Part shown: piece after piece, positions 12,305-51,178 of the stretch | Layout of the letters: each line of letters starts with the position of its first letter | Position numbering within the stretch: position 1 is the first letter of the stretch | Assembly: GCA_963825595.1 (NCBI GenBank) | Contig: CAWGUE010000031.1 | Location: forward strand, 2,270 to 66,269 | Reading direction: 5' to 3' | Length of the DNA: 64,000 bases | Source of the DNA: an uncultured delta proteobacterium | Lineage (GTDB): Bacteria > Desulfobacterota > Desulfobacteria > Desulfobacterales > SG8-13 | Made by a program: the position numbers and the translations under genes | The notes under the pieces: model-generated | Databases searched by the model: none | Told to the model about the DNA's origin: nothing | The model's input: only the letters and a program-made list of their open reading frames with translations

Positions 12305-12718
12305 ATGAAGAAATTAGTCGGAAAGCTTATCACTGCCATCCTGATATTTTCGGTCGTCAGCGGATGTGCCACTTCGCCGTTTGCCGACGATGCGGTTCCG
12401 CGGATGAGCAAGGAAGAACTCAAACAGCGGATTGGTGCACCGGACATCATCATTCTGGACACCCGCACGGGCAGCGATTGGAACGACAGCGATCGAATTA
12501 TATTAGGGGCAGTGCGCGCCGAACCCAAGGAATTCAGCAAGTGGGCCGAAGCATACCCCAAGGATGCCACCATCGTATTGTACTGAGCGTGACATGACGA
12601 ATACACCAGTGCCAGGATGGCACGGCAACTCATCGGCAGAGGATACAATAAAGTGTACGCGCTTAAAGGCGGTTGGATCGAATGGCAAGGTTCCGGTTAC
12701 CCGATGGAGAAGAAATGA
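12305..12718 (+). CDS. rhodanese-like seleno-lipoprotein with U-x-U motif (Sec94, Sec96; 137 aa)
   Basis: lipobox VSGC. Reading through TGA 12584 and TGA 12590 gives IVLY-U-A-U-HDEYTSARMARQLIGRGYNKVYALKGGWIEW, a complete rhodanese fold. Hairpin GTGCCA-GGA-TGGCAC at 12609-12623. Confidence 0.85.
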
Positions 12719-13376
12719 TCGTAAAAATGGGTATGGGCGAGGGGCAGAGATCGTTCATTTCCAATAGATCTTTCTCGCTGCAGTACCCCTTGGAAGCATA
12801 ACCCTTCTCCAGGCCTTTTCGAGTGATCACCTGGATATGCGTGTGGTGGAACCAATTGCCGTTTTCGTGAAAATCACCGATCTCGGCAAAGGGTACACCG
12901 GCTGGGAACGTTTGACCGACTGCCGGCAGGTGGTCCCTGCACAGATGACCGTAGAAGCTGTAAAACGCCTCGAAATTGGGGCTCTCGTGCTTCAAGAGTA
13001 CGAAGCCGCCATAGTTACCTTCCCCGCTCTCGTAGCCGCTCCCTGAAACGGTGGCATCAAGCGGCGCATGCAGCGGTGTGCCCAAGCCCACGATGACATC
13101 CAGGCCCAGGTGGATGAATCGTTTTTCGGCCACCATCTGCGGGCAGTCCCCGAGCAGGGTGTCGCGTCGCTCGAAATAGGGCGAAACCCCCCATCGGTAT
13201 TCGGATCCCATCTTCTCCTCAAGGACCCGTTGGAATCCTTTCTGGTCCCGCACATTCTTCCCTTTGAGCAGTGGACTGTTGGTTGAGAGATCCGCGATAA
13301 AGGGATCTCCCTTCAGTCCCGGAAAGACAGGCCGGTGTTGGATCTTCTCACTGTAAAGCAAAAAAGGATAGTACAT
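12663..13376 (-). CDS. M23/peptidoglycan DD-metalloendopeptidase-like domain protein
   Basis: HLGLD, GTPLHAPLD, YGHL, ENGNWFHHTHIQ; no signal peptide. Confidence 0.75.
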   Translation of the reverse strand: MYYPFLLYSEKIQHRPVFPGLKGDPFIADLSTNSPLLKGKNVRDQKGFQRVLEEKMGSEYRWGVSPYFERRDTLLGDCPQMVAEKRFIHLGLDVIVGLGTPLHAPLDATVSGSGYESGEGNYGGFVLLKHESPNFEAFYSFYGHLCRDHLPAVGQTFPAGVPFAEIGDFHENGNWFHHTHIQVITRKGLEKGYASKGYCSEKDLLEMNDLCPSPIPIFTIISSPSGNRNLAIRSNRL

Positions 13377-13388
13377 GCGGCCTCCGGG

Positions 13389-15851
13389 TCAGGATAACGC
13401 AAAATCGGTGGTTTTCAGCAATCCGGCAACCGCAACGATCGGCTTGCCGTCATCACCTTCTTTGATATCATCGGGCCAGGTGAAATCCGGTGATAGGCCC
13501 CTGAAGTAGGAGAGCTCGTAGGGAAGCAGTTTTATCGACAGATTCTCACCTTCACCGATAATGGTGGATGACAAACCGAAATCAACCTCACCCAGGACCG
13601 TGCGGATAATGTAGCGCGGCACCTCCCTGCCGCTGCCTTCCCGGCGGACCCGTGTGGCGATGTCCACCACATCGTAAAGCGCCACCGGGTTGCGCTTATT
13701 CCAATGGTCTTGCACGGGAAGTCCGGCCACGTACAGGTGGTGAAACTCGATGCCGGCCTTCCGGCAGCTGTAGGCGAGGTGGTGAATGGCCTCCGGCGTG
13801 TCGTTGATTCTGCCCAGCAGGGGCGTGTTGTTATAAACGGTGATGCCCTTGTTGTTCAGCAGGCGCGTCAACCGGGTGTGCGCCGGCCGAAACTCGTCCG
13901 CAACCAGAAATTGGGTTTCAATTTCCAGCCGTTGCGGATTGACGATGGTCAGTTTGTTCAGGCTGGCCAGCTTGTCGATCACCACCGGCGAGTAGCGATC
14001 CGGTTCGTAGTTGAATTTCAGGCTGCGCAACCGGACGGCATTGACATGCGGGATGTCTTCCAGGGCCCTGATGATTTTACTGATTTGGAACAGAGATTCG
14101 GTGGCGTCTATCTCGGAAACGATCACCACGTCGGTAATGCGTTCGTCACCCTGGATGTAATTTAGATCCGCTTCGGTGCCATCGGCATCGATCTCGACCC
14201 GGGTTTCGTGGACGCGTGACATCGTCGAAGATCCGGTATCGACAAGCGATGGCGCAATTTTTTCATTTTTCAGTACCATTGGCAGAATCGCATCGGTACT
14301 TTCTGTCTTCATTGTCACGCCGTCGCCAAGTCTAGACGGCCGCGCTCCCAGAAAGAGCGATTGATCCCCGATCTGCGCCATGTACTGAATGTCGATGGTC
14401 CCCTCCTCGTTGACCCGGATATTTTCCAACTTGTTGGCAACAGGTGCAAATTGCTTGAAATAGTCCGGTGTGTAAGGACTTCGGATCCACATGAAGTTGT
14501 CGTTTCCCGCCACCGGCTCCACGGCCCAGCCGCTGGTGTGCCAGTCCATCTTGCCGATGGGGGTGGCCGTGCAGATCCTCGGAATAACGCGGTCAGACAG
14601 GTGCGCCCGCAGGTATTTTCCTGCGGCCAGACCTTTTGATATCGGCGACCAGTAGACGCTGTTTCCATGGATGGGACTGCAGGGGATGTAAATATAATGG
14701 AGTTCGGCCCCGGCGCCACGCAGCAGACTGAACAGCCGGACCAGTTCAGGGCCTTCATCGTTGCAGTTATTTAAAAACGGTGTCTGAACGTATACTGCAA
14801 TGCCGCTTTTCACCAGATCGGTGATAATCATCAGGCTCTGGGGGGAAATCTCGTCGGGATGGATGAAGTGGGTGGCCACCTCCATGCGTTTGCCGCGTTC
14901 CTGAAGCGCGAGGTTTTTGCGCTTCAGATAATTCAACAGTTTGGCATCCTCGGACAGGAACATATGCGGGTAGTAGGCAATGGAACGGGTGGCCAGGCGC
15001 AGGGTCTGGACATGTTCGATCTCCATGAGGCCGTCGATGGCGCTGGCCATGTTTGCCCGGTTCATGAAGGGATCGCCCCCGGTGATCACGATCTCCTTGA
15101 TGGAAGGCGAATTTTTAACATGCGCCACCGCCTTTTTGACTTCCGCAGGGGTGGGGTTGGTTTCGTTGCGAGATTCCTTGTGCTTGCGGAAGCAGAACCG
15201 ACAGTACACCGGGCAGCTCATGTTCAGCAGAAAGATGACACGGTTCTGGTACATCTGCTCCAGCAGCCCCTGGTGGAACTGGCCGATCCAGGTGTTGGTG
15301 TGTCCGGCGACATCCAGTTCCTGGGTGAACGGTAAATATTGATAGGTGACATCTCGAGATACGCGCATCTGGCGGATGGTATGCATGGAGAGCCTCACCG
15401 GATAGGTGTCGATCACCTTTTGCATATCCCCCCGCTTCGCTTCCGCAAATGAGATGTTGGCGAACTTTTCCAGCTGATCGGTCGTCTTGATGGAAATGAA
15501 TGCATTGCCGGGAAGAACAATCTCCAGAATCGCCATCAGCATCAGGTGGGGCAGTTCAATACCGTTAATACAGATCTTTTGGGTGCCGTTTGCTTTTCCC
15601 AGCAGCATGAGCAGTTCAGAGAAAAAACCCTTTGGATTGTCGCTATGCCCGCAAGCGTCGAGCAGTCTTGAAAGTTTTGTTCGCCCGTCACCGGTCTGTA
15701 TAATGTCAAAAAACGTTTTGCCGACAAGTGACATCACGCCCATATGGTCGAGGAAACCGGTGAGGGCGGCAACCAAATGTGCGAGGGGCACCTGGTTCTC
15801 TTCGCCTGAATTTTCGTAAACAATCTTTAAAAATGGTTCGTCTCGCGACAT
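13389..15851 (-). CDS. KamA (lysine 2,3-aminomutase)-like radical SAM protein with a duplicated degenerate second domain
   Basis: CPVYCRFCFRK, ITGGDP, THFIHPDE, QTPFL..CND, PIGK; second half repeats NTPLL..IND/LYVA/VPRY without the CxxxCxxC. Confidence 0.85.
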   Translation of the reverse strand: MSRDEPFLKIVYENSGEENQVPLAHLVAALTGFLDHMGVMSLVGKTFFDIIQTGDGRTKLSRLLDACGHSDNPKGFFSELLMLLGKANGTQKICINGIELPHLMLMAILEIVLPGNAFISIKTTDQLEKFANISFAEAKRGDMQKVIDTYPVRLSMHTIRQMRVSRDVTYQYLPFTQELDVAGHTNTWIGQFHQGLLEQMYQNRVIFLLNMSCPVYCRFCFRKHKESRNETNPTPAEVKKAVAHVKNSPSIKEIVITGGDPFMNRANMASAIDGLMEIEHVQTLRLATRSIAYYPHMFLSEDAKLLNYLKRKNLALQERGKRMEVATHFIHPDEISPQSLMIITDLVKSGIAVYVQTPFLNNCNDEGPELVRLFSLLRGAGAELHYIYIPCSPIHGNSVYWSPISKGLAAGKYLRAHLSDRVIPRICTATPIGKMDWHTSGWAVEPVAGNDNFMWIRSPYTPDYFKQFAPVANKLENIRVNEEGTIDIQYMAQIGDQSLFLGARPSRLGDGVTMKTESTDAILPMVLKNEKIAPSLVDTGSSTMSRVHETRVEIDADGTEADLNYIQGDERITDVVIVSEIDATESLFQISKIIRALEDIPHVNAVRLRSLKFNYEPDRYSPVVIDKLASLNKLTIVNPQRLEIETQFLVADEFRPAHTRLTRLLNNKGITVYNNTPLLGRINDTPEAIHHLAYSCRKAGIEFHHLYVAGLPVQDHWNKRNPVALYDVVDIATRVRREGSGREVPRYIIRTVLGEVDFGLSSTIIGEGENLSIKLLPYELSYFRGLSPDFTWPDDIKEGDDGKPIVAVAGLLKTTDFALS

Positions 15852-41485: not shown

Positions 41486-42367
41486 TCAAAAGTGGCTCAG
41501 TGGGCCGCCGGCGTGGTCGACCCAGATATCGACGAAAGGATCGTATTCCGCGGTTCCTTTGAGAATGGGAATGCATTCGATCCCGGCCTTTGTTAGGACC
41601 GACTTCCATGAATCGTCTTCGTCACCGGCCATGTCGTTCTTGGCGTGGTCACCAGCGACGGACATAAACGGCATCAGGTAAGCTTTTTTGATTTTCCTTT
41701 TAAGCAGCAGATCCTTGATCAAATCGACTTCGGGGTAGCCTTCCACCGTGCCGACGAAAACGTTCGGGTCCTGCAGTTGCAGCTGAAACATGAGGGCGGC
41801 ATAAAACGCATTAGACGGGTGATGCGTGCCGTGGCCCATCAGAACCACAGCGTCGATTTTTTTACGGTCTTCGGGAATAATTTTCAAGATCGCGTCCACG
41901 GTCCGCTGCATATCCTGCTGGGTCGCCATCAGGGGGTAGCCCAGGATGATGCTTTGAAAACCGCCCATCATTTTATATGCCCCGACAGTGCGGCGTAGAT
42001 CATGGTATTCCTGCCCGGCAATCGTGTGCAGTGACTGCACGGCCACGTGAGTAAATTTTTCATCCTGCATTTTGGCCAAGGCGACTTCAGGCGAATCCAA
42101 ATACTTTCCTTGCTTGGCCAGTTTTTCGCGTATGATGTGAGAAGTATACGCCCAGCGTACCGGGATGTCGGGATATTTACTTTTAACCTTCCGATCGATA
42201 TTTTCGAAGGAAACTTGAGCGGAAGCTTCACTTGACCCAAAAGCAACGAGGAGAATACCGACCTTCTTGGGATTTTGATGACCATGCCCGCCGGAAGTGA
42301 AACTATTAACGGCAAAAAGAACGATAGCAGCAAAAACTATGACCCCGATCCATCGTTTGCTCTTCAC
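41486..42367 (-). CDS. cbiK: sirohydrochlorin cobaltochelatase CbiK (exported CbiK-P type)
   Basis: LLVAFGSS, AYTS.II, QSLH..AG.EY, MGHGT, GTVEGYP, PFMSVAGDHAKNDMAG; N-terminal signal peptide. Confidence 0.92.
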   Translation of the reverse strand: MKSKRWIGVIVFAAIVLFAVNSFTSGGHGHQNPKKVGILLVAFGSSEASAQVSFENIDRKVKSKYPDIPVRWAYTSHIIREKLAKQGKYLDSPEVALAKMQDEKFTHVAVQSLHTIAGQEYHDLRRTVGAYKMMGGFQSIILGYPLMATQQDMQRTVDAILKIIPEDRKKIDAVVLMGHGTHHPSNAFYAALMFQLQLQDPNVFVGTVEGYPEVDLIKDLLLKRKIKKAYLMPFMSVAGDHAKNDMAGDEDDSWKSVLTKAGIECIPILKGTAEYDPFVDIWVDHAGGPLSHF

Positions 42368-42421
42368 TTTTTTCCTCCTTTATTTAATGCTTTATACTCA
42401 ACGGTATAATGAAAAATTTTT

Positions 42422-42716
42422 GTCCTTATTCAGAGGGTTAATTTCACCGCCCATTCGCTGCGCTCATTAGAGGCATAATGTTCGCAGAGAATTTTCTTTC
42501 TATTTCTTTTCGCTGAAAGGGCAAAAAGAAATAAACCACAGCCCTTACGGGCAGGAAAAGCTATATTTATTTTGCCGAAGGTATTCTGGGTTTCATTTGC
42601 CGGCGTCTCAGCGGCAAATAAAGGATGAAAATTCACTCTGCGCCCTCTGCGACTCTGCGGTGAACAAATGGTCAAATTGACAGCATAGATTACATCGTTA
42701 CCCCCTGAACAAATAC
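42422..42716. mobile_element. MITE-like insertion (295 bp)
   Basis: absent from copy 2; imperfect TIRs GTCCTTATTCAGAGGGT / ACCCCCTGAACAAATAC; 9-bp direct repeat AAAATTTTT at 42413-42421 and 42717-42725. Confidence 0.75.
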
Positions 42717-42736
42717 AAAATTTTTGATGAGAGAAC

Positions 42737-42772
42737 AAAAAAGCCCTTCAACCACCAGCGGCTTGAAGGGCT
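42737..42772 (-). terminator. intrinsic terminator (riboswitch expression platform)
   Basis: minus strand AGCCCTTCAA..TTGAAGGGCT followed by a T-tract, between aptamer and cbiK. Confidence 0.7.
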
Positions 42773-42837
42773 GCACCCAGTTTACTTAACCCTATTGTCT
42801 ATCCGTGCGGTCCCATCTTCCGAAGTTGCACGGCGTA

Positions 42838-43008
42838 TCGTCAAGGCAGGTCTTCTGGCTCCCGGATCAACCGACGATCTGCGCCTTCCCATCCCGCTGA
42901 ATCTCGAAACAGTGGTATCTGCAGATTTCGTCCCCGGTGACAGCGGCGGGACCGCTCCCGATTCACACGGGATTCCCTATTAAGCCGCAAGCGGCACCTT
43001 GATCGATG
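42838..43008 (-). ncRNA. cobalamin riboswitch
   Basis: minus strand AAGGTGCC..AATAGGGAATCCCGTGTGAATCGGGAGCGGTCCCGCCGCTGT..CCACTG..GGGAAGG..GAGCCAGAAGACCTGCC upstream of cbiK. Confidence 0.92.
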
Positions 43009-43055
43009 ACGTACTAATCATCTTATATTCTGTCAATAGGAAACCAAAAATGAGT

Positions 43056-43094
43056 TTGACAAAATTACAATCAACATATAAATAAACATTTATA
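43056..43094 (+). promoter_or_regulatory. sigma70 promoter with overlapping palindrome (candidate ArsR-type operator)
   Basis: TTGACA at 43056; TATAAAT-AAAC-ATTTATA inverted repeat at 43077-43094 over the -10. Confidence 0.55.
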
Positions 43095-43141
43095 CATTAA
43101 TAAATCGTAACGTACCTCTACGACGATGCCATTTAGGGGAG

Positions 43142-43498
43142 ATGCTCCCTGATTCAACGGAAACCATGCTTTTAGAAAAAAACAAAGACAAAAAGGATGC
43201 GCCGAATCTCCAGCATCCTGCTTTTCTTGCGAAAAGTCTCAGTGACGAAAACCGGCTGCGAATTTTGCTTTCAATCAGTGTGCACAAAAAGTCGGTGTCG
43301 TCAATTGTCGAAGAACTCGCCCTGTCACAACCGCTGGTTTCCCATCACCTTAGAGAATTAAAGCGCGCCCTATTGGTTAACATCGAACGCAACGGCCCTT
43401 TTGTATTGTATAAACTTGCCGACAAGCGCGTCATAGAAATCGTTGCCAAGTTGCAAGGTCTGGCAAATGACCTGATCGCCAACAGAACCGGTTTCTAG
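43142..43498 (+). CDS. tsoR: ArsR/SmtB family metalloregulator heading the selenoprotein operon (TsoR-like)
   Basis: KSLSDENRLRIL, LSQPLVSHHLRELK, R.G..V.Y; symbol recalled from memory and assigned by operon context. Confidence 0.85.
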   Translation: MLPDSTETMLLEKNKDKKDAPNLQHPAFLAKSLSDENRLRILLSISVHKKSVSSIVEELALSQPLVSHHLRELKRALLVNIERNGPFVLYKLADKRVIEIVAKLQGLANDLIANRTGF

Positions 43499-43595
43499 TT
43501 CGTGCCATCCACGAATGTTCGCTGGCGTTTTTCAGCGTCCAGCGTAAAAATGACCTTTTGGGATTGATCACGAAGTCTATAGGAGTCACACATAG

Positions 43596-44045
43596 ATGAA
43601 AGAGCTTGAAAGTTTGATAGACCGCATGGACCCGGAAGCGGCGATGGCCGCGATTATCGGCATCGTCAGAAAACTATTTCCTCAAGTCGGCGAATCGTCA
43701 CAGCTGAACTTCGTTTATGCCCTCACCGGCGGCGCCGAGGGAGGCAGTGCTGCCGACCTTGTGCATCTCTGACTGGCCGAGTGCATGGACGAAGGTGTCG
43801 ATCCAACGAAAATGTGCCAGAGTCTGGTAAACAAAGTCGCCCAATCGAAACAGCTTCAGGCGGTTACCGACCCTGAAATCCTTGTCTTGTTCGAGGACTG
43901 GCTGAATGAAATCGAAAATGAAGTGGTGTCATCGGTAAAGAAAACCGGCTCTGACAATCACGCCCAAATTGCCGAACAGACGGGGCTCTCCCGATCGGGT
44001 GCCAATTTCATCATTACCAAGTTGAAACGCGAAGGACGCCTTTAA
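43596..44045 (+). CDS. tsoA: LULAxC-motif selenoprotein (TsoA-like; Sec59; 149 aa)
   Basis: AGGAG RBS + ATG43596 in frame with ORF 43785; TGA 43770 gives VHL-U-LAE-C-MDEG; hairpin TGGA-CGA-AGGTG-TCG-A-TCCA follows; TGA retained in copy 2. Confidence 0.82.
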
Positions 44046-45788
44046 ATGACCACAGGATCATCGCGTTCAAGGACAATGTGGATCGCTCTGGCGGCAGTTC
44101 TGGCGACTATAGCCGCAGTCTGGAGCATTAACCTGCCGCCGGAAATCGTTAAGGCGACAATGGACGATGTGCGGGTCGAAGCCGAGAAGGGCGGCTATCG
44201 ACTCGTGGACATAGACACGCTGGCTGACCTTTATGAAACCCGCCGCGACCGGATCCTGCTTATCGATACGCGACAGCAGTGGGAATATCGCAGCGGTCAT
44301 ATTTCCGGCGCGATTGTTTTCCCAATGGAACCGACGTGGTGGGCGAGATGGCGCAAGAAGGGCGAACTGAAGGCACTCCTGGGTCCGGATAAGCAGAAAT
44401 CGATCGTCTTCTACTGAGCGGGGCTGGCATGAGTCCGCAGCGACTCGGCGGCTCGGGTAGCCGTTCAACTGGGATATCAGAACGTGTTTCGCTATCCGGA
44501 AGGGTATCCGCAGTGGCAGTCAAAAGGGTTGCCGGTAGCCGAAAGTAAGACGAAACCCCTGGCAGATGGTCCCAAATCAGACCTCGCCGGTTCTTTTACT
44601 GGCTGGCAGCTCGTCTGGACGCTCCTCGGCATTTTTGCCGGAGGGTTGGCCTTGAACTTGACCCCTTGTGTCTATCCGCTGATACCCATCACCGTTTCCT
44701 ACTTCGGCGGCAGGAGCGGCACGGGTAAAAGCGGGCTTGTCGGACACGGTATCTGCTACATCGGCGGGCTCTCCCTGACGAATTCGTTTCTGGGCGTCAT
44801 GGCCGCGCTGACCGGCGGCCTGATGGGGGCCATGCTCCAGAATCCTCTGGTGCTTGTCGCCATCGCGGCAGTGATGATCGTCTTTGCATCGAGCCTGTTC
44901 GGGTTATGGGAACTCAGGCTGCCATTCTGGCTGACCCAGGCGGCATCAAAATCATACACGGGATTATTCGGTTCTTTCTTCATGGGGATAACCCTGGGAG
45001 TCGTGGCCGCGCCCTGCATCGGCCCGTTCGTGCTGGGGTTGCTGACCTGGGTGGCCGCCCTAAGTGATCCTCTGGTGGGTTTTGTCGTCTTTTTCATCCT
45101 CAGCCTCGGATTGGGTGCACCGCTTTTCGTGTTGGCCCTTTTTTCGGGTCGGCTGACGCAACTGCCGAAATCCGGCGAATGGATGAACTGGGTCCGGCGG
45201 TTAATGGGCTGGGTTCTTGTGGCCATGGCCGCTTATTTTCTCAAACCGATCCTTCCGGTGGTCATGCAGAAGTATTTGCTGCCGGCAATCGCCATTGCGG
45301 CTGGATGGCAATTGGGATGGCTGGACAAAACCACCGCGACGTTTCGATCGTTTGCCGTGATCAAGATTTTGGTCTCCATTGTCTGCCTGGTTGCCGGCAC
45401 GTATCTGGCCGGCAACCAGTTTTTCAAAGGCCCATCGGTCAGGTGGCATCAATATTCAGATCAACTGTTGGCGGATGCAGTAGGTCAAAACAAACCGGTC
45501 ATCATCGATTTTTATGCCACCTGGTGCGCCCCCTGCCGCGAACTCGACGACATCACCTTCCATCATCCCGATGTGGTCAAATTTTCCCACGATGATTACA
45601 TCATGGTGAAAGTAGATCTGACCAAACAGGGTGATCGACAATATGACCGGTTGTTGGAGACGTACGCGGTCAAAGGGGTACCCACCGTCATTTTTTTGGA
45701 CACCTCGGGACATGAAAGGCAGGACCTACGGCTGGTCGATTTTATTGGACCGGATGCATTTTTGAATCGGATGGTTTCATTGCGGTGA
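44046..45788 (+). CDS. tsoB: rhodanese + DsbD/CcdA membrane domain + thioredoxin fusion selenoprotein (TsoB-like; Sec124, Sec129; 580 aa)
   Basis: ORFs 44046 and 44484 share a frame; SIVFY-U-AGLA-U-VRSDSAARVAVQLGYQNVFRYPEGYPQW completes the rhodanese; LTPCVYP and AAPCIGP (DsbD-beta); WCAPC (Trx). Confidence 0.88.
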
Positions 45789-45857
45789 CACCGGGCAACT
45801 GAACAATAACCCGATGAACCGAATACTGCCCGCAACCCTTACCTAAGGAGACAGCCA

Positions 45858-46175
45858 ATGCTGACCGTGCACTTTTTTCTCAACGAACCCAACGGCAAAC
45901 CGTGAAAGCATTTTAAAAAGATGATGCCCGGTCTGGGCAATACATATGACATTCGAATCGAAACGACATCCAAGCCCAAAGCGGATTACATGACGGACGC
46001 GTACTTCGAGCTCGACCTGCCTGTGGCCCCGGCCGTCATGGTGGGCGAAGAGATCGTGGTGGAAGGAGCGGATCTGGCCCAGAGTGAAATAGAGGCGGCT
46101 ATCTGTAGGCATTTGAATTTGCCGCTCCCGGAAAAGGAAGAAAAGAGGTTTTTTCGAAAAATATTCAAAGAATGA
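45858..46175 (+). CDS. tsoC: NEPxGxxU-motif thioredoxin-like selenoprotein (TsoC-like; Sec16; 105 aa)
   Basis: AAGGAG RBS + ATG45858, MLTVHFFLNEPNGKP-U-KHFKKMMPG via TGA 45903; hairpin TGCCC-GGTCT-GGGCA at 45925-45939; cis-Pro-like VAPAV. Confidence 0.88.
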
Positions 46176-46325
46176 AATGCTCGGATTGTCATTATCTATC
46201 TAGTACCCATCCACGAATATGAGATGGCACCGTTGAGTGTCCCTTAATTTTGGGATGGGAGAGGTCATTAGCGACTTCAGCGCGCAACCCATGCATAAGG
46301 CAGCCTAAGGAAAGGATTCACGGGA

Positions 46326-46628
46326 ATGGATCGTCGAAGGGTTATGGTTGAGATTGTTGCGAAAAAAAAAGGGTGTATGATGTGCGATCTTGCGATTGGC
46401 ATTCTCGAGGAAATCACTCCTGAATTCGATGCTGGGATTCTGCAGTGGCAGGTCGTCGATGTCGGTTCGCGTGAAGGGGTTGCACGCCATGCCGAACTTG
46501 GTTCCATTTGCGGGCGTATGCCGGCTGTACCTTCGATTGTGATTAACGAAGCCATCGCCTTTGACAACATACCAGACATGGCGTCCTTGACAGTGGCGGT
46601 GCGAAAGGCAAGCCACTCGAATGCTTGA
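46326..46628 (+). CDS. small thioredoxin-fold protein, CMMC
   Basis: VEIV..KGCMMCD, AVPSIVIN. Confidence 0.75.
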   Translation: MDRRRVMVEIVAKKKGCMMCDLAIGILEEITPEFDAGILQWQVVDVGSREGVARHAELGSICGRMPAVPSIVINEAIAFDNIPDMASLTVAVRKASHSNA

Positions 46629-46707
46629 ATTTTAACACTGAATAAGGGATAGATAATGCTGAAAAGATATTTTAGAAGGAAGTGAGGCAGATGTGGTATT
46701 ATGGAAT

Positions 46708-47048
46708 GTGTGCAGTGACTCACGGCCACGTGAGTAAATTTCTCATCCTGATTTTGGCAAAGGTTCTTCAGGCGAATCCAAGTACTTTCCCTGCTTGGCC
46801 AATTTTTTGCGTATGATGTGAGAAGTATACGCCCAGCGTACCGGTATGTCGGGATATTTACTTTTAACCTTGCGATCGATATTTTCGAAGGAAACTTGAG
46901 CGGATGCTTCACTTGACCCAAAAGCAACGAGGAGAATACCAACCTTCTTGGGATTTTTATGACCATGTCCACCGGAAGTGAAACTATTAACGGCAAAAAG
47001 AACGATAGCAGCAAAAACTATGACCCCGATCCATCGTTTGCTCTTCAC
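46708..47048 (-). pseudogene. cbiK: cbiK 5' fragment (duplicate, truncated and frameshifted)
   Basis: first ~94 aa nearly identical to 41486-42367, then breaks at the duplication junction. Confidence 0.85.
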
Positions 47049-47217
47049 TTTTTTCCTCCTTTATTAATGCTTTAAACTCAACGGTATTATGAAAAATTTT
47101 TTACTATGAGAGAACAAAAAAGCCCTTCAAACACTATCGGTTTGAAGGGCTGCACCCAGTTTACTTAACCCTTTTGTCTATCCGTGCGGTCCCATTCTCG
47201 CGAAGTTGCACGGTGTA

Positions 47218-47390
47218 TCGTCAAGGCAGGTCTTCTGGCTTGCGGATCAACCGACTATCTGCGCCTTCCCATCACGTTGAATCACCAAACAGTGGTGTTT
47301 GCAGATTTCGTCCCCGGTGACAGCGGCGGGACCGCTCCCGATTCACACGGGATTCCCTATCAAGCCGCAAGCGGCACCTTTGATCGATGA
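47218..47390 (-). ncRNA. cobalamin riboswitch (copy 2)
   Basis: same conserved elements as 42838-43008; terminator at 47116-47151. Confidence 0.88.
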
Positions 47391-47545
47391 CCTACTAATC
47401 ATCTTATATTCTGTCAATAGGAAACCAAAATTGAGTTTGACAAAATAACAATCAACATATAAATAAACACTTATATATTAATAAATAAAACGCGCCCATA
47501 CGACGATGCAATTTAGGGGAGATGCTCCCTGATTGAACGGAAGCC

Positions 47546-47880
47546 ATGCTTTTAGAAAAAAACAAAGACAAAAAGGATGGCGCGAATCTCCAGCATCCTG
47601 CTTTTCTTGCGAAAAGTCTCAGTGACGAAAACCGGCTGCGAATTTTGCTTTCAATCAGTGTGCACAAAAAGTCGGTGTCGTGCAATTGTCGAAGAGCTCG
47701 CCCTGTCACAACCGCTGGTTTCCCATCACCTCAGAGAATTAAAGCGCGCCCTATTGGTTAACCATCGAACGCAACGGCCCTTTTGTATTGTATAAACTTG
47801 CCGACAAGCGCGTCATGGAAATCGTTGCCAAGTTGCAAGGTCTGGCAAATGACCTGATCGCCAACAGAACCGGTTTCTAG
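47546..47880 (+). pseudogene. ArsR/TsoR-like copy 2, frameshifted
   Basis: indels near 47680-47700, 47760 and 47815 relative to copy 1. Confidence 0.75.
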
Positions 47881-47977
47881 TTCGTGCCATCCACGAATGT
47901 TCGCCGGCGCTTTTCAGCGTCCAGCGTAAAAATGGCCTTTTGGGATTGATCACGAAGTCTATAGGAGTCACAAATAG

Positions 47978-48427
47978 ATGAAAGAGCTTGAAAGTTTGAT
48001 AGATCGGATGGACCCGGAAGCGGCGATGGCCGCGCTGGCCGGCATCGTCAGAAAACTCTTTCCTCAAGTCGGCGAATCGTCACAGCTGAACTTCGTTTAC
48101 GCCCTCACCGGCGGCGCCGAGGAAGGCAGTGCTGCCGACCTTGTGCATCTCTGACTGGCCGAGTGCATGGACGAAGGTGTCGATCCAACGAAAATGTGCC
48201 AGAGTCTGGTAAACAAAGTCGCCCAATCGAAACAGCTTCAGGCGGTTACGGACCCTGAAATCCTTGTCTTGTTCGAGGACTGGCTGGATGAAATCGAAAA
48301 TGAAGTGGTGTCATCGGTAAAGAAAACCGGCTCTGACAATCACGCCCAAATTGCCGAACAGACGGGGCTCTCCCGATCGGGTGCAAATTTCATCATTACC
48401 AAGTTGAAACGCGAAGGACGCCTTTAA
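47978..48427 (+). CDS. tsoA: TsoA-like selenoprotein, copy 2 (TGA 48152)
   Basis: same frame and VHL-U-LAEC motif as copy 1. Confidence 0.8.
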
Positions 48428-50171
48428 ATGACCACAGGATCATCGCGTTCAAGGACAATGTGGATCGCCCTGGCGGCAGTTCTGGCGACTATAGCCGCAG
48501 TCTGGAGCATTAACCTGCCGCCGGAAATCGTTAAGGCGACAATGGACGATGTGCGGGTCGAAGCCGAGAAGGGCGGCTATCGACTCGTGGACATCGACAC
48601 GCTGGCTGACCTTTATGAAACCCGCCGCGACCGGATCCTGCTTATCGATACGCGACAGGAGTGGGAATATCGCAGCGGTCATATCTCCGGCGCGATTGTT
48701 TTCCCAATGGAACCGACGTGGTGGGCGAGGTGGCGCAAAAAGGGCGAACTGAAGGCACTCCTGGGTCCGGATAAGCAGAAATCGATCGTCTTCTACTGAG
48801 CGGGGCTGGCATGAGTCCGCAGCGACTCGGCGGCTCGGGTAGCCGTTCAACTGGGATACCAGAACGTGTTTCGCTATCCGGAAGGGTATCCGCAGTGGCA
48901 GTCAAAAGGGTTGCCGGTAGCCGAAAGTAAGACGAAACCCCTGGCAGATGGTCCCAAATCAGACCTCGCCGGTTCTTTTACCGGCTGGCAGCTCGTCTGG
49001 ACGCTCCTCGGCATTTTTGCCGGAGGGTTGGCCTTGAACTTGACCCCTTGTGTCTATCCGCTGATACCCATCACCGTTTCCTACTTCGGCGGCAGAAGCG
49101 GCACGGGTAAAAGCGGGCTTGTCGGACACGGTATCTGCTACATCGGCGGGCTCTCCCTGACGAATTCGTTTCTGGGCGTCATGGCCGCGCTGACCGGCGG
49201 ACTGATGGGGGCCATGCTCCAGAACCCTCTGGTGCTTGTCGCCATCGCGGCAGTGATGATCGTCTTTGCATCGAGCCTGTTCGGGTTATGGGAACTCAGG
49301 CTGCCATTCTGGCTGACCCAGGCGGCATCAAAATCATACTCGGGATTTTTCGGTTCTTTCTTCATGGGGATAACCCTGGGAGTCGTGGCCGCGCCCTGCA
49401 TCGGCCCGTTCGTGCTGGGGTTGCTGACCTGGGTGGCCGCCCTGGGTGATCCTCTGGTGGGTTTTGTCGTCTTTTTCACCCTCAGCCTCGGATTGGGTAC
49501 ACCGCTTTTCGTGTTGGCCCTTTTTTCGGGCCGGCTGACGCAACTGCCGAAATCCGGCGAATGGATGAACTGGGTCCGACGGCTAATGGGCTGGGTTCTT
49601 GTGGCCATGGCCGCTTATTTTCTCAAACCGATCCTTCCGGTGGTCATGCAGAAGTATTTGCTGCCGGCAATCGCCATAGCCGCCGGTTGCCATTTAGGAT
49701 GGCTGGACAAAACCACCGCGACGTTTCGATCGTTTGCCGTGATCAAGATTCTGGTCTGCCATTATTTGCCTGGTTGCAGGCACGTATCTGGCCGGCAACC
49801 AGTTCTTCAAAGGCCCATCGGTCAGATGGCATCAATATTCGGATCAACTGTTGGCAGATGCAGCCGGTCAAAACAAACCGGTCATCATCGATTTTTATGC
49901 CACCTGGTGCGCCCCCTGCCGCGAACTCGACGACATCACCTTCCATCATCCCGATGTGGTCAAATTTTCCCACGACGATTACATCATGGTGAAAGTAGAT
50001 CTGACCAAACAGGGTGATCGACAATATGACCGGTTGTTGGAGACGTACGCGGTCAAAGGGGTACCCACCGTCATTTTTTTGGACACCTCGGGACATGAAA
50101 GGCAGGACCTGCGGCTGGTCGATTTTATTGGACCGGATGCATTTTTGAATCGGATGGTTTCATTGCGGTGA
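48428..50171 (+). CDS. tsoB: TsoB-like selenoprotein, copy 2 (TGA 48797 and 48812; +1 frameshift near 49758)
   Basis: same U-x4-U motif; the Trx domain continues in frame 49851-50171. Confidence 0.8.
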
Positions 50172-50240
50172 CACCGGGCAACTAAACAATAACCCGATGA
50201 ACCGAATACTGCCCGCAACCCTTACCTAAGGAGACAGCCA

Positions 50241-50558
50241 ATGCTGACCGTGCACTTTTTTCTCAACGAACCCAACGGCAAACCGTGAAAGCATTTTAAA
50301 AAGATGATGCCCGGTCTGGGCAATACATATGACATTCGAATCGAAACGACATCCAAGCCCAAAGCGGATTACATGACGGACGCGTACTTCGAGCTCGACC
50401 TGCCCGTGGCCCCGGCCGTCATGGTGGGCGATGAGATCGTGGTGGAGGGGGCGGATGTGGCCCAGTATGAAATAGAGGCGGCTATCTGCAGGCATTTGAA
50501 TTTGCCGCTCCCGGAAAAGGAAGAAAAGGGTTTTTTACGAAAAATATTCAAAGAATGA
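50241..50558 (+). CDS. tsoC: TsoC-like selenoprotein, copy 2 (TGA 50286)
   Basis: same NEPNGKP-U motif and GGTCT hairpin. Confidence 0.85.
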
Positions 50559-50708
50559 AATGCCCGGATTGTCATTATCTATCTAGTGCCCATCCACGAA
50601 TATGAGATGGCACCGTTGAGTGTCCCTTAATTTTGGGATGGGAGAGGTCATTAGCGACTTCAGCGCGCAACCCATGCATAAGGCAGCCTAAGGAAAGGAT
50701 TCACGGGA

Positions 50709-51011
50709 ATGGATCGTCGAAGGGTTATGGTTGAGATTGTTGCGAAAAAAAAAGGGTGTATGATGTGCGATCTTGCGATTGGCATTCTCGAGGAAATCAC
50801 TCCTGAATTCGATGCTGGGATTCTACAGTGGCAGGTCGTCGATGTCGGTTCGCGTGAAGGGGTTGCACGCCATGCCGAACTTGGTTCCATTTGCGGGCGT
50901 ATGCCGGCTGTACCTTCGATTGTGATTAACGAAGCCATCGCCTTTGACAACATACCAGACATGGCGTCCTTGACAGTGGCGGTGCGAAAGGCAAGCCACT
51001 CGGATGCTTGA
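50709..51011 (+). CDS. small thioredoxin-fold protein CMMC, copy 2
   Basis: differs from 46326-46628 only near the C-terminus. Confidence 0.75.
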   Translation: MDRRRVMVEIVAKKKGCMMCDLAIGILEEITPEFDAGILQWQVVDVGSREGVARHAELGSICGRMPAVPSIVINEAIAFDNIPDMASLTVAVRKASHSDA

Positions 51012-51178
51012 ATTTTAACACTGAATAAGGGATACGATGAGCGACCGTCTATCCAAGATCGATGAACACATATAGAGAAATCTTTAAAACAGATCAATTT
51101 CGATACTGTGACTGTCGCGGACAGGAGATCGACTAAGCGGGAACCGGGCAGGATGACGATATCCGCGCCGGTCTAATG

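Follow-up and report, generated by a model that had tools for sequence, protein, structure and literature searches.

Rhodanese/DsbD-fusion selenoproteins are a described family, TsoB, which is curated under model NF045694 and which a table in a 2026 review (PMC13188914) lists with the motif UxxxxU and two selenocysteine (Sec, U) residues, with credit to Haft & Tolstoy 2025. The same table holds several double-Sec bacterial proteins, and a rhodanese form with a UxU motif was reported in 2007 (PMC1976440). For the bacterial Sec insertion sequence (bSECIS), the hairpin that directs recoding, the criteria quoted from PMC13188914 are a loop of 3-9 nucleotides (nt) with a G in its first two positions, a stem of at least 4 base pairs (bp) and a distance of 16-37 nt between the UGA and the loop. 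Here, we examined the gene at positions 44046-45788 of a 64,000-nt stretch (the window) of contig CAWGUE010000031.1, from the genome of an uncultured delta proteobacterium (assembly GCA_963825595.1), which an earlier sequence-only reading had described as a rhodanese-DsbD-thioredoxin fusion with two Sec residues and a hairpin for each UGA. This gene is tsoB, the third gene of a tsoR-tsoA-tsoB-tsoC operon, and it belongs to the known family. The protein part of that reading is correct yet already known; the RNA module behind the two UGAs is a real conserved feature and is worth keeping.

Identity of the gene and its two in-frame UGAs

On the forward strand, 44046-45788 forms a single frame of 580 codons with a closing TGA, and it contains two extra in-frame TGAs at 44415-44417 (UGA1) and 44430-44432 (UGA2), which a coordinate check places 15 nt apart and in the same frame as the ATG at 44046. 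Reading TGA as U yields 580 residues with U124 and U129, and with the motifs TPCVYP (206-211), APCIGP (322-327) and WCAPC (493-497); translation table 11 cuts the frame into 44046-44417 (123 residues) and a second piece that runs from GTG 44484 to 45788 (434 residues). The full-length translation matches NF045694 with 933.5 bits for a cut-off of 805, its residues 10-579 corresponding to model positions 2-571 of 572, and a profile search of the genome contigs with the same model recovered tsoB at 921.4 bits with two TGAs inside the match. The genes tsoR, tsoA and tsoC adjoin it on the same strand, each above its own family cut-off (Table 1). Length, domain order, the UxxxxU motif with two Sec and the TsoR/TsoA/TsoC neighbors are all those of the TsoB family, with no difference at the protein level, and the NCBI model would name such proteins automatically. 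The double-Sec fusion architecture and its U-x4-U spacing proposed from the sequence thus stand, but they are not new, as the family is already curated under NF045694. The accompanying statement that double Sec is rare in bacteria is better worded as uncommon yet not unknown, given the entries tabulated in PMC13188914 and the UxU rhodanese of 2007.

Comparison with relatives argues for one gene that is read through. Across 401 sampled genomes of the phylum, NF045694 matched above its cut-off at 30 places in 26 genomes, and exactly two TGAs were present in all 30; the remaining matches in these genomes comprise the DsbD-like part only, from about model position 154. Together with the domain match that spans the UGAs, these 30 places bear out the earlier claim of a single gene whose two Sec codons fall in the active-site loop of the rhodanese. 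Among database N-terminal fragments, 46 of 46 end in FY at UGA1, i.e. gene callers stopped there. When 5.8 billion proteins were searched with the rhodanese part, the 607 candidates included one full-length relative without Sec (P0002), which carries Gly and Arg, not Cys, at the Sec positions, each of them one base from TGA, and which keeps the peptide VRSDSAAR. No TsoB variant with Cys or with a single UGA was found among the 607 protein candidates and the 46 fragments, the DNA patterns having required both TGAs. In the host genome, selB (375.7 bits), selA (607.9 bits) and selD (375.7 bits) were all detected above their cut-offs. The selD gene (G000:C14:195262-196185, reverse strand) also belongs to the selenoprotein genes, having a single in-frame TGA and a hairpin CAGUCC-GGUC-GGACUG that begins 11 nt past the UGA.

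Taken as a whole, the assignment to tsoB, the reading of both UGAs as Sec and read-through by way of a conserved 34-nt module of two hairpins form an interpretation that we hold to be probable.

A conserved module of two hairpins

TsoB loci were gathered from three sources, the phylum genome scan and two pattern scans, one of genome contigs and one of metagenome contigs. All sequence sets required both TGAs and an A-G-L/F-A/T spacer, and the final set also required the peptide [VA]RS[DG]xAAR. At least 201 loci with the longer pattern gave 190 distinct segments, from which three with extra stops (L046, L075, L230) and six failing the peptide filter were dropped, the latter including L185, which has a one-base insertion, and the unrelated L221, L247 and L265; 181 distinct sequences were retained. 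The genome-contig pattern scan yielded at least 119 stretches, about half of them chance matches in unrelated genomes that were removed by the peptide motif.

Two hairpins follow the UGAs where the sequence-only reading had drawn them, hairpin 1 (GAGTC-CGCAGC-GACTC) at 44431-44446, 13 nt past UGA1, and hairpin 2 (GGCGGCT-CGGGT-AGCCGTT) at 44447-44465, 14 nt past UGA2, and both proved to be conserved in homologs. Applied to 28 homologs, RNAalifold drew precisely these two, hairpin 1 with 5 bp and hairpin 2 with 6 bp, and no further structure. The supported core of hairpin 2 pairs 44448-44453 with 44459-44464; its outermost (seventh) pair, 44447-44465, was rejected, as these bases do not pair in 11 of the 28 homologs, nor in 105 of 181 sequences. 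With 79 sequences, 98.8% of the paired cells pair, versus 22.9-61.1% with slid partners, and none of 500 shuffles matched the observed value; 23 cells changed on both sides, all in hairpin 2, a number that was again reached by 0 of 500 shuffles. In the set of 181, hairpin 2 is intact in 178 sequences and all five pairs of hairpin 1 are intact in 165.

Two pairs of hairpin 2, both made of free third codon positions, covary. Pair 51/63 of the alignment occurs as GC in 131 sequences, AU in 32, CG in 9 and GU in 6 (unpaired in 3), and pair 54/60 as CG in 162, UA in 18 and UG in one. The loop reads CGGGU in 116 sequences and CGUGU in 57, its third position being G or U in 181 of 181, never C or A. 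With a 5-nt loop CGGGU, a 6-bp stem, a distance of 21 nt from UGA2 and two compensating pairs, hairpin 2 agrees with the generic bSECIS criteria. The recoding hairpins of the operon and genome have the loops AGGUG (TsoA), (A)GGU(U) (TsoC), GGUC (selD) and AGGAU (an LYUAU rhodanese, see below), at UGA-to-loop distances of 17-27 nt. Because its C-G-G/U-G-U loop at 21 nt resembles these loops, and because of its covariation, hairpin 2 is, as far as sequence comparison goes, a canonical SECIS and a putative SelB site. It shares with bacterial SECIS elements (E. coli fdhF type and generic model) the G-G/U loop, the short G+C-rich in-frame stem and the loop 21 nt past the UGA, and differs from them in that tsoB has a second conserved hairpin directly adjacent, which overlaps UGA2. 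When 42300-46700 was scanned with Rfam (E up to 1), the sole match was a cobalamin riboswitch, and none was to a SECIS family.

Hairpin 1 is marked by codon choice. The Val codon in its stem is GTC in 170 sequences, GTT in 6 and GCC in 5, never GTA or GTG, and the Asp codon is GAC in 174, GAT in 5 and GGC in 2, whereas comparison columns of the same alignment are mixed (Val+16: GTA 75, GTT 41, GTG 32, GTC 27; Asp-9: GAC 41, GAT 31), Asp columns outside the stem being close to 1:1. Since the codons between the UGAs and those past hairpin 2 vary freely, the constrained RNA is limited to 44431-44464. Judged by this codon usage, hairpin 1 is a real structure under selection. Its mean folding free energy is -4.35 kcal/mol (-10.1 kcal/mol for hairpin 2), and in 147 of 181 sequences no G-G/U occurs in its CGNAGY loop (CGC 127, CGA 19, AGA 1), whose G at 44437 is invariant and whose third position takes all four bases. 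The A-U pair of hairpin 1 is lost in twelve of the 181 sequences. In five (L062, L116, L180, L225 and L275), the residue that follows UGA2 is Ala (GCC) in place of Val, and the central pair is thereby broken; L275 alone compensates, with Gly (GGC) for Asp, and the fold computed for L062 has instead a hairpin 2 lengthened by a lower stem. The covariation check that the sequence-only reading had called for thus gave a divided answer, two compensating pairs in hairpin 2 and nearly none in hairpin 1.

Decoding of two UGAs 15 nt apart

The proposal of tandem SECIS elements, one per UGA, was borne out for hairpin 2, which is SECIS-like, but less so for hairpin 1, whose loop is unlike the SECIS loops of the operon and genome. 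From the sequences compared, we lean slightly toward hairpin 1 as a fold-out spacer rather than a second SelB site, because its loop lacks G-G/U in most homologs, because UGA1 lies 36 nt from the hairpin 2 loop and because the LYUAU gene manages with a single hairpin. Hairpin 2 would bind SelB, and hairpin 1, selected as a structure, would serve UGA1. With UGA1 in the A site and hairpin 1 folded, hairpin 2 would have its base adjacent to nt 44430, and UGA1 would then face hairpin 2 at about 13 nt plus the width of a helix; after the ribosome melts hairpin 1, UGA2 would face hairpin 2 at 15 nt. Hairpin 1 is 16 nt long for a UGA spacing of 15 nt, and unless it folds, the hairpin 2 loop stays at a distance from UGA1 that is beyond the 17-27 nt seen in the genome and operon. 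A register-shifting module of this kind, in which the folded hairpin 1 presents one SECIS (hairpin 2) at a like distance to UGA1 and then to UGA2, is a tentative proposal that we hold to be less likely than not.

Precedents for parts of this arrangement exist. The LYUAU rhodanese at 12305-12721 on the forward strand of the window is of the lipoprotein type (NF041203, 170.8 bits for a cut-off of 115; LY-U-A-U motif) and resembles the UxU form of PMC1976440; its two UGAs are spaced by 6 nt and are followed by a single hairpin, GUGCC-AGGAU-GGCAC, 16 and 22 nt from them. In tsoB, by contrast, the spacing is 15 nt and there are two hairpins. A 2026 paper describes one SECIS region for UXXU motifs; given this and the LYUAU gene, one hairpin for two close UGAs is not unprecedented. 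Vertebrate Selenoprotein P, for which PMC10778597 gives two SECIS elements in the 3' untranslated region for about 10 UGAs, likewise has several recoding elements for several UGAs, but these eukaryotic elements act at a distance from the 3' untranslated region, whereas those of tsoB lie in the coding sequence, fixed a few nt from each UGA. In the literature searched, which excluded the original TsoB paper (Haft & Tolstoy 2025), we found no text on the paired TsoB hairpins and no described bacterial register-shifting mechanism.

Several observations weigh against Sec decoding or against the module as we read it. No tRNA-Sec was found in the 36 contigs of the assembly, which is 95% complete, nor in the regions around selA, selB and selD: ARAGORN with default settings reported 49 tRNAs, none of them tRNA-Sec, and the best match to Rfam RF01852 (46.2 bits for a threshold of 47) is a tRNA-Ser. 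A tRNA-Sec candidate obtained from ARAGORN at a lowered threshold was rejected for its poor structure and for want of support from Rfam or default ARAGORN, and a still lower threshold gave noise. The missing tRNA-Sec is the sole gap in the case for Sec decoding. As for the RNA, the single-sequence minimum free energy structure of 44412-44480 is a different, long-range one (z = -1.17; 25 of 200 shuffles at least as stable). Because of what the sequence sets required, codon positions 1-2 of both stems were partly preselected, and the UGA, together with codon positions 1-2 of the peptide U-V-R-S-D-S, leaves only two of the ten bases in the stem of hairpin 1 free. Covariation in hairpin 1 is thin, L275 having changed on both sides (C-G for U-A) versus four sequences left uncompensated. 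Hairpin 1 may also be dispensable, since 16 of the 181 sequences have an imperfect form of it, compared with 3 of 181 for hairpin 2. Finally, it formally passes the generic bSECIS criteria (a loop of 6 nt with G as second base, a stem of 5 bp and 18 nt between UGA1 and the loop), and our preference for a spacer over a SECIS draws on loop resemblance and geometry, both read from sequence.

Among the alternatives, tandem SECIS elements fare best: hairpin 1 for UGA1 and hairpin 2 for UGA2, each binding SelB-GTP-Sec-tRNA. Their spacing is similar, the stems beginning 13 and 15 nt and the loops 18 and 21 nt past the respective UGAs; hairpin 1 fits the generic criteria taken from PMC13188914, and its stem is under synonymous-site selection. 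Moreover, the minimal E. coli SECIS stem-loop lies 11 nt from its UGA according to PMC8659212, so that one hairpin would not be expected to serve UGAs 15 nt apart. On the other side stand the hairpin 1 loop, which mostly lacks G-G/U and accepts any base at its free position when those of hairpin 2, TsoA, TsoC, selD and the LYUAU gene all hold GG or GU, the weakness of its fold and the larger share of imperfect sequences. We regard tandem elements as a serious contender, if one that falls short of an even chance.

It is unlikely that hairpin 1 is a mere by-product of a conserved peptide, without any RNA role, and that hairpin 2 serves both UGAs at 21 and 36 nt. The amino acids do dictate most of its stem, through the UGA and the first two positions of the Val, Asp and Ser codons; the non-Sec relative P0002 retains VRSDSAAR; a distance of 36 nt falls within the published 16-37 nt range; and the hairpin is broken in the 16 sequences mentioned. 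A by-product would, however, leave the free sites open, and these are near-fixed to the most stable choice (GTC 170 versus GTT 6; GAC 174 versus GAT 5) when other Val and Asp columns use all codons; one-sided changes, furthermore, still pair by G-U in 12 sequences.

A split into two genes, one for a rhodanese fragment of 123 residues up to 44417 and one for a DsbD-like protein whose start would be GTG 44484, or a decayed pseudogene, would agree with the two open reading frames (ORFs) that table 11 precisely yields and with the frameshifts in the other two TsoB copies of the host genome, but this is extremely improbable, and GTG 44484 was rejected as an independent start, as 44418-44483 is conserved in frame within the rhodanese fold, both TGAs are invariant in all homologs found (in sets that in part required both), a covarying SECIS follows them and the full length exceeds the cut-off of a curated selenoprotein model.

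Protein architecture, genomic context and meaning

Table 1. Coordinates of the tso genes, of the recoding elements and of the TsoB domains in the window
Feature	Coordinates	Strand	Evidence and remarks
tsoR, ArsR/SmtB-type regulator	43142..43498	+	NF045707 158 bits, cut-off 115
tsoA, selenoprotein with LULAxC motif	43596..44045	+	NF045695 211.3 bits, cut-off 170
tsoA in-frame TGA	43770-43772	+	
tsoA SECIS hairpin	~43786-43805	+	loop AGGUG in 78/80 homologs; one pair GC 39, AU 39, GU 2
tsoB	44046..45788	+	580 codons, then TGA stop; ATG immediately after the tsoA TAA
TsoB N-terminal hydrophobic segment, residues 10-28 (signal peptide or anchor)	44073..44129	+	Kyte-Doolittle 2.01 in a 19-residue window; preceded by R-S-R
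TsoB rhodanese domain, residues 67-159, across both UGAs	44244..44522	+	PF00581 56.6 bits, cut-off 22.2
UGA1, Sec124, at the catalytic-Cys position of rhodaneses	44415..44417	+	PDB alignments
UGA2, Sec129, same loop, two residues ahead of a conserved Arg	44430..44432	+	PDB alignments
Hairpin 1	44431..44446	+	5-bp stem GAGUC/GACUC, loop CGCAGC; contains the G and A of UGA2
Hairpin 2, core	44448..44464	+	6-bp stem GCGGCU/AGCCGU, loop CGGGU; 15 nt past UGA2
TsoB DsbD-type transmembrane domain, residues 190-403	44613..45254	+	PF02683 139.9 bits
Cys208 (transmembrane domain)	44667-44669	+	
Cys324 (transmembrane domain)	45015-45017	+	
TsoB thioredoxin-like C-terminal domain, residues 466-552	45441..45701	+	PF13899 54.7 bits, PF00085 41.4 bits
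WCAPC, Cys494 and Cys497	45525-45536	+	
tsoC, selenoprotein with NEPxGxxU motif	45858..46175	+	NF045708 144.5 bits, cut-off 45
tsoC in-frame TGA	45903-45905	+	
tsoC SECIS GCCC-GGUCU-GGGC	45926-45938	+	conserved; inner loop GGU in 62/100 homologs
Small thioredoxin-like protein with GCMMC, final gene of the repeated unit	46326..46628	+	NF047660 51.8 bits, below cut-off 105

In alignments with the solved rhodaneses 6mxv, 3d1p and 6k6r, U124 falls on the catalytic Cys, and the active-site loop of TsoB is two residues longer in all three (a two-residue gap in 3/3 alignments); the usual loop of sulfurtransferase rhodaneses, which in the aligned chains consists of Cys, four residues and Arg, is not matched by TsoB. 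The domain has the fold of single-domain rhodaneses and of rhodanese selenoproteins such as the LYCAU family NF041203, with Sec at the catalytic-Cys position, and TsoB differs from these and from the UxU form by the two additional loop residues, by a second Sec five residues off and by the fusion of the domain to a membrane conduit. The idea that the Sec-containing rhodanese takes the place of the DsbD alpha domain holds: the DsbD model NF001419 (269.3 bits, below its cut-off of 330) was matched over positions 164-570 of 574 only, leaving its alpha domain (1-163) unmatched, Pfam found no DsbD N-terminal domain in TsoB, and the beta and gamma domains are present. Hydropathy and the positive-inside rule, the latter also giving the orientation of the N-terminal segment, predict that the rhodanese and the C-terminal thioredoxin-like domains both lie outside the membrane and are separated by about eight membrane segments, an arrangement like that of DsbD. 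TsoB thus resembles E. coli DsbD in its transmembrane domain with two conserved Cys, in its C-terminal CxxC thioredoxin-like domain and in its predicted topology with both soluble domains outside, and it departs from DsbD in having a two-Sec rhodanese domain where the latter has the alpha domain.

DsbD is an alpha-beta-gamma thiol-disulfide electron conduit, and the following route takes its order of electron transfer as a guide. In TsoB, cytoplasmic thioredoxin would hand electrons to Cys208/Cys324 of the membrane domain, from which they would pass next to Cys494/Cys497 of the periplasmic WCAPC motif and last to the periplasmic rhodanese loop U124-x4-U129, which is sited as the DsbD alpha domain is. 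The two Sec may form a diselenide, as the sequence-only reading proposed for the terminal carrier, or they may bind a metal(loid) or carry a chalcogen. A candidate substrate, to judge by the ArsR-type regulator and by the want of Cys forms, is a chalcogen or a soft metal(loid), and the lack of a Cys form at either Sec position suggests chemistry beyond the reach of sulfur.

The operon lies in a tandem duplication of about 4.4-4.7 kb (42020-46654 and 46705-51038), whose unit contains, besides tsoR, tsoA, tsoB, tsoC and the thioredoxin-like gene, a riboswitch and the 5' portion of a CbiK-like gene; the main blocks, 42727-46654 and 47106-51038, are 97.1% identical, and 11 indels of one base each separate them. 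A stop and two frameshifts interrupt tsoR in copy 2, where tsoB carries an additional base at 49758, an apparent decay that may be assembly error; tsoA, tsoC and the thioredoxin-like gene are intact. A third TsoB paralogue on another contig (G000:C30:202524-204231; L003, L160), with about 52-55% protein identity, keeps both TGAs and both hairpins and has several frameshifts, in the membrane domain and ahead of the thioredoxin domain. The tsoB gene at 44046-45788 is hence the only intact copy of the three in the genome. Named records with TsoB are mostly from Desulfobacterota, with single metagenome-assembled genomes labeled Nitrospirae, Gemmatimonadota and Rokuibacteriota.

Cobalamin riboswitch aptamers (RF00174) are located on the reverse strand, divergent from tsoR, at 42828-43016 (109.9 bits) and 47210-47396 (106 bits), the former preceding the CbiK-like gene (41486-42367) and the latter its truncated copy (46632-47048), both also on the reverse strand. 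Elsewhere in the window, an ORF of 1062 residues at 12663-15851 on the reverse strand, open only when one TGA is read through, may be another selenoprotein; it has a KamA-type radical SAM region, its matches to aminomutase models are below cut-offs and its C-terminal region weakly matches PRK06148.

A bacterial SECIS must lie shortly behind its UGA, so the reading of two UGAs 15 nt apart poses a real mechanistic question, for which TsoB is a clean natural case, its 34-nt module being kept in 181 distinct sequences. This module pairs a covarying hairpin with a canonical loop and a hairpin with a non-canonical loop that is held by synonymous-site selection. The spacer and tandem models predict opposite outcomes in reporter and SelB-binding assays, and the answer would be useful for engineering proteins with several selenocysteines.

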